Source: Candidatus Komeilibacteria bacterium
GTDB lineage: Bacteria; Patescibacteriota; Patescibacteriia; UBA1558; UBA10009
NCBI GenBank assembly: GCA_030688315.1
Contig: JAUYIT010000017.1
Span: 68,845 to 127,838 of the forward strand
Direction: 5' to 3'
DNA: 58,994 nucleotides
Positions 12,440 through 14,146 of this stretch are shown piece by piece. Every line of letters starts with the position of its first letter. The stretch's first letter is position 1. The position numbers and the translations under genes are program-made. Under the pieces are notes generated by a model. The model was not told the origin of the DNA. It saw only the letters and a program-made list of their open reading frames with translations, and ran no database searches.

Positions 12440-14146
12440 ATGCGCAAAGCCATAACCATTGCTACCAGAAGAAAAGTTTGGACCTCCTTTGCCGCCATTA
12501 TGGCGGTGGCTTTGTTTTGCGCCCTGATAGTTTACCCTAATCTGCCCTCGGCTGTGCCCGGCAGTTCTTTTTTTAACAAGTTTTTTCCGCGTTTAGGCCT
12601 TGATTTGCAAGGCGGTTCGCACTTGGAATACCAGGCCGATTTATCATCCATACCGTCAGCTGACCAGGAATCGGCGTTGGGCGGCGTTAGGGACGTAATT
12701 GAAAGGCGGGTCAACGCTTTTGGAGTTTCCGAACCGTTGGTTCAAACCTCCGGACAAAATCGTTTAATTGTGGAACTGGCCGGCATTAAGGATGTTAATG
12801 AAGCCATTAAAAAAATCGGCGAAACCCCGTTATTGGAATTTAAGGAGCAGGAAATCACCGGACCAGTCGCCTTAACGCCCGAACAGCAGGCCGAGGCCAA
12901 ACAGTATAACCTTGACCAATACCAAAAAGCTAAGGAAATAACCGGCCGCTTAAACAATGGCGAAGATTTTGCCGTTTTAGCTAAGGAATTTTCTGATGAC
13001 CCGGGTAGCAAAGAGCTGGGTGGCGATTTGGGTTTTGCCAAGAGAGGCACTTTTGTGCCGGAATTTGAAAAAGCCATTTTTGACGACATGCAGGTGGGCC
13101 AAATTACCCAGGAGCCGATTAAATCCGATTTTGGCTACCATATCATTAAAAAAGAGGAAGTTAGGGGAGAAGGTGAAAATTTGGAAGTAAAATCATCGCA
13201 TATTCTGCGCCTGACCAAAGATGAAATTTACAACACCGACCCTAACAGCCAAAATCAAAACTGGATCAACACCAAGTTGTCGGGTAAAAATCTCAAGTCG
13301 GCCAGCGTTCAGTTTGATCCCACCACCGGCCAGCCCTCGGTTAATTTAGAATTTGACGATGAGGGCAGGGAATTGTTCGCCGAGATCACCAAGCGCAATT
13401 TGCAAAAACCGGTTGGTATCTTTTTGGACGGCGAGGCCATTAGCATCCCCACTGTTCAGGATGAAATTACTCAAGGCACGGCCATTATTAGTGGCAATTT
13501 TAATATCAACGAAGCCAAACTGCTGGCCCAGCGCTTAAATGCCGGCGCTTTGCCCGTGCCCATTGAACTGATCAGCCAGCAAACCGTGGGCCCATCCTTG
13601 GGCAAAATTTCTTTGCAAAAATCATTGTTAGCCGGCTTAATCGGGCTGATTGTGGTGTGCTTGTTTATGCTGGCCTACTACCGTTTATTCGGCTTGATCG
13701 CGATATTGGCCTTATTGATTTACGCGATGATTTCCTTTGCCATTTTTGAATTATGGCCGGTTACCTTAACCTTATCGGGCATTGCCGGTTTTATTTTATC
13801 CATCGGCATGGCTGTGGACGCCAACGTTTTAATTTTTGAACGCTCCCGCGAAGAACTGATGAACGGCAAGCCCTTGGCCACCAGCATTGAAGAGGGCTTT
13901 ACCCGGGCCTGGGCGTCTATTTTGGATTCCAACGTGTCCAGTTTAATTACCTGCGCCATTTTGGCCTGGTTCGGCTCCAGTTTGATTAAGGGTTTTGCCA
14001 TCAGCTTAGCCATTGGTATTTTGGTTTCCATGTTTACAGCCGTTACCGTTAGCCGCACGTTTTTGCGTTTAATCAACGGACGCTGGTTTTCCAAGCGATT
14101 ATGGCTGTTTACCTTTAAAGACCTGGTGCGCAAGGAGGATAAATAA
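12440..14146 (+). CDS. secD: protein translocase subunit SecD with an embedded parvulin-type PPIase domain
   Basis: N-terminal TM, [14 protein letters not shown], P1 segments and a C-terminal 5-TM block ([22 protein letters not shown]) are typical of SecD. An internal GGDLGF...VPEFEKAIF...FGYHIIKK parvulin signature is also present. Confidence 0.9.
   Translation: [568 protein letters not shown]

Follow-up and report, generated by a model that had tools for sequence, protein, structure and literature searches.

The stretch of DNA described here (58,994 nt, the whole of which is referred to as the window) comes from contig JAUYIT010000017.1 of a Candidatus Komeilibacteria bacterium and carries a gene for the protein translocase subunit SecD at positions 12440-14146 of the forward strand. 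The encoded protein is a bona fide SecD with a permuted domain of the parvulin type of peptidyl-prolyl isomerase (PPIase) inserted at the start of its P1 head, on the extracytoplasmic side. Residue numbers given below are those of this SecD protein.

The secD gene and its insert

The gene is a single intact open reading frame (ORF), with SecD sequence flanking the insert at both ends. Features within it were assigned by using Pfam, alignment with Thermus thermophilus SecDF (TtSecDF), conservation among homologues and AlphaFold2 (AF2) models with their predicted local distance difference test (pLDDT) scores:

12440-14146 (+): secD with embedded parvulin, 568 amino acids (ORF; TIGR01129; Pfam; TtSecDF 3aqp, E 7e-81)
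12467-12532 (+): first transmembrane helix (TM1), residues 10-31 (helix in the AF2 model)
12689-12850 (+): N-terminal segment of P1, SecD_1st at residues 84-137 (E 2.6e-19), closing in the LLEFKEQ strand at residues 131-137 (Pfam, AF2 model)
12851-12877 (+): entry linker, residues 138-146 (column conservation 0.2-0.7, gaps)
12878-13168 (+): predicted parvulin core, α1-α2-α3-β2-α4-β3-β4, residues 147-243 (Pfam Rotamase and Rotamase_3, AF2, Foldseek, invariant residues)
12998-13000, 13124-13126 and 13139-13141 (+): D187, S229 and H234, respectively, within the parvulin core
13166-13183 (+): hairpin turn GEGENL, residues 243-248, leading from β4 to the displaced strand (AF2 model; length variable in the family)
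13184-13213 (+): putative displaced β1 strand, residues 249-258, with the invariant H254 at 13199-13201 (profile, AF2, conservation, covariation)
13214-13261 (+): variable exit linker, residues 259-274, after which SecD resumes at the invariant W275 (pLDDT 54-58; gaps, low conservation)
13262-13564 (+): remaining part of the P1 head, then back to the base, residues 275-375 (SecDF_P1_head at residues 276-373, E 1.3e-30; TtSecDF from residue 160)
13565-14074 (+): SecD membrane domain, residues 376-545, with the invariant D460 at 13817-13819 (Pfam SecD_SecF_C at residues 375-545; TtSecDF alignment; invariance)

Assignment to SecD was based on several matches. The protein scored 402 bits with the secD equivalog model TIGR01129 (cutoff 244), the 397 positions of which were spread over residues 52-542, and the three Pfam families SecD_1st, SecDF_P1_head and SecD_SecF_C were all found. 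A conserved membrane Asp (D460) is present and secF lies adjacent. D460 is invariant, its motif aligns with TtSecDF GAAVDGNVLSFER, and we take it to be the proton-pathway Asp of SecDF, a membrane residue that reportedly belongs to the proton pathway in work attributed to Tsukazaki et al. (2011). Judged by D460, the motor part of SecD looks intact. The position of TM1 places everything up to TM2 (at about residue 388), and therefore the insert, outside the cytoplasmic membrane.

The alignment with TtSecDF (3aqp) fell into two blocks, in which query residues 51-143 corresponded to residues 34-126 and query residues 280-556 to residues 160-437. Between the blocks, 136 residues stand in place of 33 TtSecDF residues, a net insert of about 100 amino acids.

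The insert was identified as a parvulin by sequence and by predicted structure. Pfam Rotamase_3 matched residues 153-240 (E 5.8e-22, 78.9 bits; cutoff 22.5) and Rotamase matched residues 157-239 (E 7e-22, 78.7 bits; cutoff 21.7), far beyond chance; PrsA- and SurA-type NCBIfam models as well as chains of the Protein Data Bank (PDB) also matched the insert by sequence. The full-length AF2 model had a mean pLDDT of 81, with values of 86-89 across the insert, and a second model of residues 136-300 alone, built from an alignment of 40 sequences, reached 95-98 over residues 146-260. The secondary-structure elements of the AF2 models were helices at 147-172, 177-184, 188-191 and 207-216, strands at 196-200, 232-242 and 249-258, and a short β3; the predicted structure contains the four-stranded antiparallel sheet and the four helices of the parvulin fold. 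On either side, linkers modelled with low confidence connect the domain with SecD. When the insert model was searched against the PDB with Foldseek, only parvulin PPIases were found below E 1e-3, with root-mean-square deviations of 0.9-3.1 Å; they included a Bacteroides fragilis PPIase (8hm4, 106 columns, 1.9 Å) and Bacillus cereus PrsA (6vj6, 77 columns, 0.9 Å, 57 % identity). With the full-length model, the top matches were SecDF structures; SecDF and resistance-nodulation-division (RND) pumps dominated the list, which was uninformative on the insert. On the combined evidence of sequence and model, residues 147-258 can be described as a parvulin-type PPIase domain, homologous to parvulins and closest to those of the PrsA type.

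A preliminary description, made from the DNA letters alone, had placed a parvulin domain in the P1 loop at 12881-13215. This interval corresponds to residues 148-258, the peptide quoted there agrees exactly with the ORF translation, and the SecD P1 segments that it named, including AGALPVPIE, do flank the insert. The significant Rotamase and Rotamase_3 matches, which also provided the domain boundaries, and the parvulin fold of the AF2 model bear out the assignment that had been made by eye. That the insert might be a standard part of well-studied SecD proteins had been named as a possible objection; it is absent from the proteins of T. thermophilus, Deinococcus radiodurans and Escherichia coli.

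Strand order and active site of the parvulin domain

Canonical parvulins have the connectivity β1-α1-α2-α3-β2-α4-β3-β4, and the insert departs from it. Profile matches of the native sequence began only at position 14-15 of Rotamase and position 29 of Rotamase_3, so that helix 1 is not preceded by the canonical first strand. The entry linker (residues 138-146) is little conserved and contains no β1-like strand bearing a His residue. A strand of the expected kind, SSHILRL, was located after the parvulin core, where it forms a hairpin with the last strand (FGYHIIKK).

The strand was moved in silico. For a single sequence, residues 244-262 were placed ahead of helix 1, and a construct with the same strand reversed served as a control. 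With the moved strand, the Rotamase match was extended to positions 1-96/97 and rose from 82.5 to 86.7 bits; the reversed strand gave neither extension nor gain. The same rearrangement was carried out at family level by using hhalign against 35 canonical parvulins drawn from the survey loci:

Native order: 86 columns, score 227, E 8.1e-41
Un-permuted: 107 columns, score 257, E 1.7e-45
Reversed-strand control: 86 columns, score 230, E 9.2e-41
Core only: 86 columns, score 227, E 3.2e-41

Solved parvulin chains were covered by the two constructs as follows:

6xd8 (PrsA1): native 15-93; un-permuted 4-92
4g2p (SurA): native 29-105; un-permuted 8-104
2jzv (PrsA): native 31-110; un-permuted 9-110

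In the un-permuted construct, EVKSSHIL was paired with EVHARHIL, the β1 strand of the second parvulin domain (P2) of SurA.

The structural models and the pattern of variation in the family point the same way. In the AF2 models, a six-residue turn connects DSSP strands 232-242 and 249-258, and the trailing strand is a DSSP strand with pLDDT 92-98 even when the insert is modelled by itself. Covariation was calculated as mutual information with average product correction (APC) over 188 single-domain fusions (effective number 156). The trailing strand was coupled most strongly with β4, in an antiparallel register (242-249, 240-251, 239-251, 239-253 and 237-253), and further couplings linked it to β2 (196-251), α4 (213-252) and α1 (160-257). 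The start of α1 (150, 153, 156) was coupled to the exit linker (260-265), and the new termini should therefore lie side by side. Taken together, sequence comparison and modelling indicate that the insert is a natural circular permutant with the order α1-α2-α3-β2-α4-β3-β4-β1. The displaced strand would fold back beside β4 as a hairpin and so bring the catalytic residues H234 and H254 together; with its new N- and C-termini adjacent, the domain can therefore fit into a loop of SecD. Circular permutation had been raised in the preliminary description from the order of the motifs, and the strand-moving profile tests, hhalign, the solved chains, residue invariance and covariation agree on it.

For conservation, 51 homologues with overall identities of 57-87 % were compared. 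H254, I255, L256, F177, S185, D187, G195, G232, H234 and I236 were invariant in 51/51, and position 229 was always S or T. By the solved-chain alignments, the Pin1 tetrad His59, Cys113, Ser154 and His157 presumably corresponds to H254, D187, S229 and H234, and the Pin1 proline pocket L122/M130/F134, which we likewise assign on that basis, to L197, F205 and F209. The pocket positions are hydrophobic throughout: L197 is L in 84 % of the sequences and otherwise V or I, F205 is F in 65 % and otherwise L, Y or M, and F209 is replaced by Y only. By residue identity, both a tetrad and a hydrophobic proline pocket are thus present. Both His motifs were kept in 185 of the 188 single-domain fusions. Conservation of H254, D187, S/T229 and H234 is the pattern that would be expected with selection on an intact active site, and PPIase activity of the domain is predicted from the conserved tetrad.

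Distribution, variants and proposed role

Among the homologues listed in the survey of SecD orthologues, which had been suggested at the outset, all 120 of 120 (57-87 % identity, on contigs of up to 941 kb) carried PF00639/PF13616 inside SecD. Their protein names read only "protein translocase subunit SecD" or equivalent, and the organism names, where given, were Patescibacteria, Komeilibacteria, Parcubacteria or "bacterium". A genome scan was then evaluated that covered one genome per GTDB species and used the insert-plus-junction alignment as query. Of the best 80 loci, 55 encoded a SecD with the order P1 N-terminal segment, parvulin, P1 head, transmembrane domain, and the remaining 25 encoded ordinary parvulin proteins. 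Named lineages with the fusion were Komeili-, Kuenen-, Kerfeld-, Veblen-, Nomura-, Magasanikii- and Moranii-bacteria, and it was also present on a complete chromosome (CP181398.1). The SecD-parvulin architecture is clade-wide in Patescibacteria and occurs in several lineages.

The labels "uncultured Gammaproteobacteria", "Lysobacteraceae" and "Saccharibacteria" were rejected as evidence for occurrence outside Patescibacteria: these loci share the synteny secD-secF-orf369-orf533 and the identity range of loci labelled as Candidate Phyla Radiation (CPR). Matches from Psychroflexus, Gemmatimonadales, Sericytochromatia, Elusimicrobia and Asgard archaea were likewise rejected as fusions, being ordinary parvulins without SecD parts. 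The records that look mislabelled are L003, L005, L009, L010, L015, L017, L018, L021, L022, L027, L028, L032, L034-L037, L044-L046, L049 and L054; they are titled "uncultured Gammaproteobacteria bacterium" (third-party annotation (TPA) assemblies) or "Lysobacteraceae bacterium", and their SecD proteins are 49-59 % identical to that of the window, so that the labels look wrong.

A protein library of 1.84 billion representatives was searched, and the top 149 were inspected. SecD fusions made up 26 of these, 15 with one parvulin core and 11 with two. An estimate of family size from the 1034 matches at E<=1e-30 was rejected, since proteins with 2-7 tandem parvulins inflate the summed scores. P0229 (905 amino acids) is a single-chain SecDF with two membrane domains and an embedded parvulin; both P0229 and P0167 (624 amino acids) carry an additional Gly/Val/Glu-rich insertion of about 45 residues in the loop of the FGWHII-RASHILI hairpin, so this loop tolerates large insertions. 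The His-to-His spacing was 20 residues in 124 of the 188 single-domain fusions, with a range of 16 to 66.

Twelve proteins with two parvulin cores were compared: L054:37-2133 (CAYMPS010000040.1), P0126, P0131, P0149, P0177, P0193, P0206, P0220, P0232, P0243, P0244 and P0267. Their order is outer core, SHIL strand with His, FGYHII core with His, and tail strand. The SHIL strand and the FGYHII core that follows it kept His in 12/12. The outer core lacked the β4 His wherever β4 was readable (the first core of P0244 is truncated before β4), and the His of the tail strand was lost in 9/12. The intact His elements of these proteins are contiguous and in canonical order, by which the SHIL strand is independently equated with β1. 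The two-core proteins look like tandem duplications of the permuted unit, or like a canonical parvulin nested in the hairpin between β4 and the displaced strand (β1'); the variable loop of this hairpin could plausibly accommodate such a nested domain. In a crude neighbour-joining tree of the SecD parts, calculated with no support values, the seven full-length proteins with two cores fell into about four groups among those with one.

Concerning the origin of the permuted unit, the junction between the first (P1) and second parvulin domains of E. coli SurA, GFHILKVNDLRG...EVHARHIL, resembles the insert in its local layout, and tandem multi-parvulin proteins match the profile of the fusion family through the trailing strand. 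Duplication is a classical route to circular permutation. The likeliest source of the permuted unit is a tandem parvulin array taken out of register, which would have supplied the core of one repeat together with the first strand of the next.

We consider it probable that the permuted parvulin, with its conserved active site and its place on the P1 head of SecD, does the work of a foldase or holdase where chains leave the translocon. The parvulin domain would be tethered at the exit of the SecYEG channel; as the proton-driven SecDF pulls unfolded secretory chains out, the P1 head would pass them to the parvulin, which would catalyse or chaperone proline-limited folding. The fusion would then substitute for PrsA, PpiD or SurA, the separate proteins to which this task falls in other bacteria. 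Related factors offer a parallel for a role at the translocon exit. The P1 head of SecDF is thought to bind polypeptide and to move with proton transport (PMC9987972). SurA binds the holo-translocon (Troman et al. 2023), and AlphaFold models place its P1 and P2 parvulin domains against the P1 head of SecDF (PMC9987972). PpiD-YfgM associates with SecYEG (PMC9643414), and in monoderm bacteria the parvulin foldase tethered to the membrane is PrsA (PMC12445088). The preliminary description had remarked that the window contains no separate prsA or ppiD; by phmmer against all six-frame ORFs, neither these nor any second parvulin was found, a result that holds for the 59 kb of the window only and not for the genome.

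Several explanations compete with parts of this account. Since the data are metagenome-derived and several record labels are clearly unreliable, the fusion might be an artefact of assembly, binning or gene calling, for example from a chimeric contig or from two genes read as one. Against this stand the uninterrupted ORF with SecD sequence around the insert, the same architecture in homologues from independent sources (120/120 of those listed) and its presence in 55 species-representative genomes including the complete chromosome, and we regard the probability of an artefact as negligible. It might also be argued that the insert is not truly permuted and is a truncated parvulin devoid of β1, with SSHILRL belonging to the P1 head or surviving as a vestige of a deleted second parvulin, and not completing the sheet. 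The Foldseek alignments are sequential and cannot place the strand at β1, and a similar layout occurs in tandem parvulins such as SurA at the P1-to-P2 junction, the strand after the core being there a part of the second domain. Three further points weigh against permutation: the gain in the single-sequence profile test is small (about 4 bits), shared ancestry can inflate mutual information, and the position of the displaced strand is derived from DSSP, pLDDT, profile tests and covariation. The SecDF_P1_head profile and the TtSecDF alignment, however, restart only at residues 276-280, past the low-confidence linker. H254-I255-L256 is invariant, as a vestige would not be; the trailing strand is a confident DSSP strand even in the insert-only model; and it covaries with β4, β2, α4 and α1 of the core. 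A parvulin with no central β1 would, moreover, miss half of the dual-His site and one core strand. A truncated domain of this kind is very improbable, and a permuted parvulin is preferred.

The main rival concerns catalysis. The permuted parvulin could be a non-catalytic substrate-binding holdase or clamp that enlarges the surface of the P1 head, much like the SurA P1 or the PpiD parvulin domain, with no prolyl isomerisation taking place. The proteins with two cores retain one His-less parvulin, an indication that a non-catalytic parvulin can be useful in the context of SecD, and the P1 head itself is already thought to bind polypeptide (PMC9987972). A finding from Bacillus subtilis also counts against a catalytic foldase: active-site mutations of PrsA abolish PPIase activity, secretion is little affected, and the mutant proteins still support it (review PMC12445088). 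Conserved catalytic residues are therefore no proof that catalysis is the relevant function. On the other side, H254, D187, S/T229 and H234 are invariant in sequences that otherwise share as little as 57 % and at most 87 % identity, both His motifs persist in nearly all single-domain fusions, and one full His pair is kept in 12/12 of the proteins with two cores. Such strict conservation of the tetrad speaks against a non-catalytic role, although the dual-His motif may also be structural. A purely binding domain thus seems unlikely, and a foldase or holdase with an intact active site is preferred. A bolder combination of claims can be formulated: that the fusion is a "Rosetta stone" for parvulins at the SecDF P1 head, that it replaces stand-alone PrsA, SurA and PpiD entirely in these minimal-genome bacteria, that the proton-driven swing of the P1 head is mechanically coupled to the transfer of the emerging chain to an active prolyl isomerase, that this is the first natural circularly permuted parvulin, and that the one- and two-domain forms record stages either of permutation by duplication or of a nested insertion into the β4/β1' hairpin. 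Taken as a whole, this combination is possible but doubtful.

The fusion can be set beside four kinds of known system. Solved SecD and SecDF proteins (T. thermophilus 3aqp and 5yhf, D. radiodurans 5xan, E. coli 5mg3) share with it the membrane domain, the transmembrane Asp, both base and head of P1 and the adjacent secF, whereas none of them has the parvulin insert of about 100 residues. Stand-alone parvulins (E. coli PpiC/Par10, archaeal parvulins and the PPIase domains of human Pin1 and Par14) have the same fold elements and the motifs SHIL, SxD, GGDLG and FGYHII; their β1 is N-terminal, whereas that of the SecD insert is C-terminal. SurA and PpiD contain parvulin domains that act on chains leaving SecYEG, as is proposed for the SecD-parvulin, and the SurA P1-to-P2 junction (β4, RG..., EVHARHIL) matches the local layout of the insert. 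They make non-covalent, transient contacts and possess large non-parvulin chaperone domains, whereas the SecD-parvulin is one polypeptide with conserved active-site residues; the SurA P1 and PpiD parvulin domains are regarded as catalytically inactive. SurA and PpiD models matched SecD in their parvulin parts only, with 43-50 bits (cutoffs 394-493).

Of the relatives with a solved structure, PrsA is closest to the insert, and it gave the best PDB sequence match among parvulins. Like the SecD-parvulin, it lies at the outer side of the cytoplasmic membrane in cells without a classical periplasm and is positioned for Sec substrates. It is, however, a separate lipoprotein of canonical strand order, the parvulin of which lies within an N/C chaperone domain that carries the essential function (PMC12445088). 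In the SecD-parvulin, no NC or SurA_N-type domain was detected by Pfam, the flanks being SecD P1 segments; SecD itself provides the anchor, and the parvulin has, on the evidence above, a permuted strand order. PrsA NCBIfam models matched the parvulin part only (for example, 71.7 bits with a cutoff of 343).

It is still a matter of debate how unfolded proteins reach extracytoplasmic chaperones from the Sec channel. For a parvulin and the P1 head, contact has so far been described from low-resolution electron microscopy and from docking with AlphaFold in E. coli (PMC9987972). That a large lineage conserves the two as a covalent fusion provides independent evolutionary support for this contact, and structural work could make use of the fusion as a stable single chain. 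Patescibacteria are episymbiotic and genome-reduced, and they rely heavily on proteins that are secreted or displayed at the surface. If the proposed role is correct, a translocon with its own foldase would be an economical way for them to keep extracytoplasmic folding capacity. The natural permutant of a small, well-studied enzyme fold, with hundreds of variants, a variable hairpin and two-domain relatives, is also a test case for permutation by duplication. Both parts, SecD and parvulin, are familiar; the covalent link of parvulin and P1 head would be of note to specialists in secretion, and the permutation illustrates the evolution of a fold. In computed Pfam tables, these SecD proteins are already annotated with both domains, and the architecture is thus catalogued implicitly; no source name mentions a fusion. 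A full-text search of a literature collection that lacks most subscription journals found no paper that describes either the fusion of SecD with a parvulin or a parvulin or PPIase of permuted order.

Genomic neighbourhood

The genes on either side of secD were assigned as follows:

9322-9684 (+): hpf-like gene (ribosome hibernation, S30AE family), 120 amino acids, directly 5' of secA
9668-12358 (+): secA, 896 amino acids (ORF), immediately upstream of secD
14149-15189 (+): secF, a separate gene, 346 amino acids (Pfam SecD_SecF_C, E 9e-54, and Sec_GG)

The order secA-secD-secF is the normal context for this SecD. In the comparison of loci, SecA homologues were found 5' of secD in many related loci, and the position of secF directly 3' of secD was kept. 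The hpf-like ORF overlaps the start of secA by 17 nt. In the window, the search with ARAGORN across the whole 59 kb found no tRNA or tmRNA genes.

Downstream, the order secD-secF-orf369-orf533 is common to about 30 related Patescibacteria loci (for example, L001, L011, L024 and L055); in the window, the copy of orf369 and orf533 lies at 15339-18085 (+). The product of orf369 contains Sigma70_r4 and HARE-HTH domains, and that of orf533 is without a Pfam match. On the 3' side of orf533, the window encodes a TrwB/VirD4-like coupling ATPase (18042-19883) and then a glycosyltransferase of family 2 (GT2; 19873-21363). The content of guanine and cytosine over the 59-kb window is 42 %.

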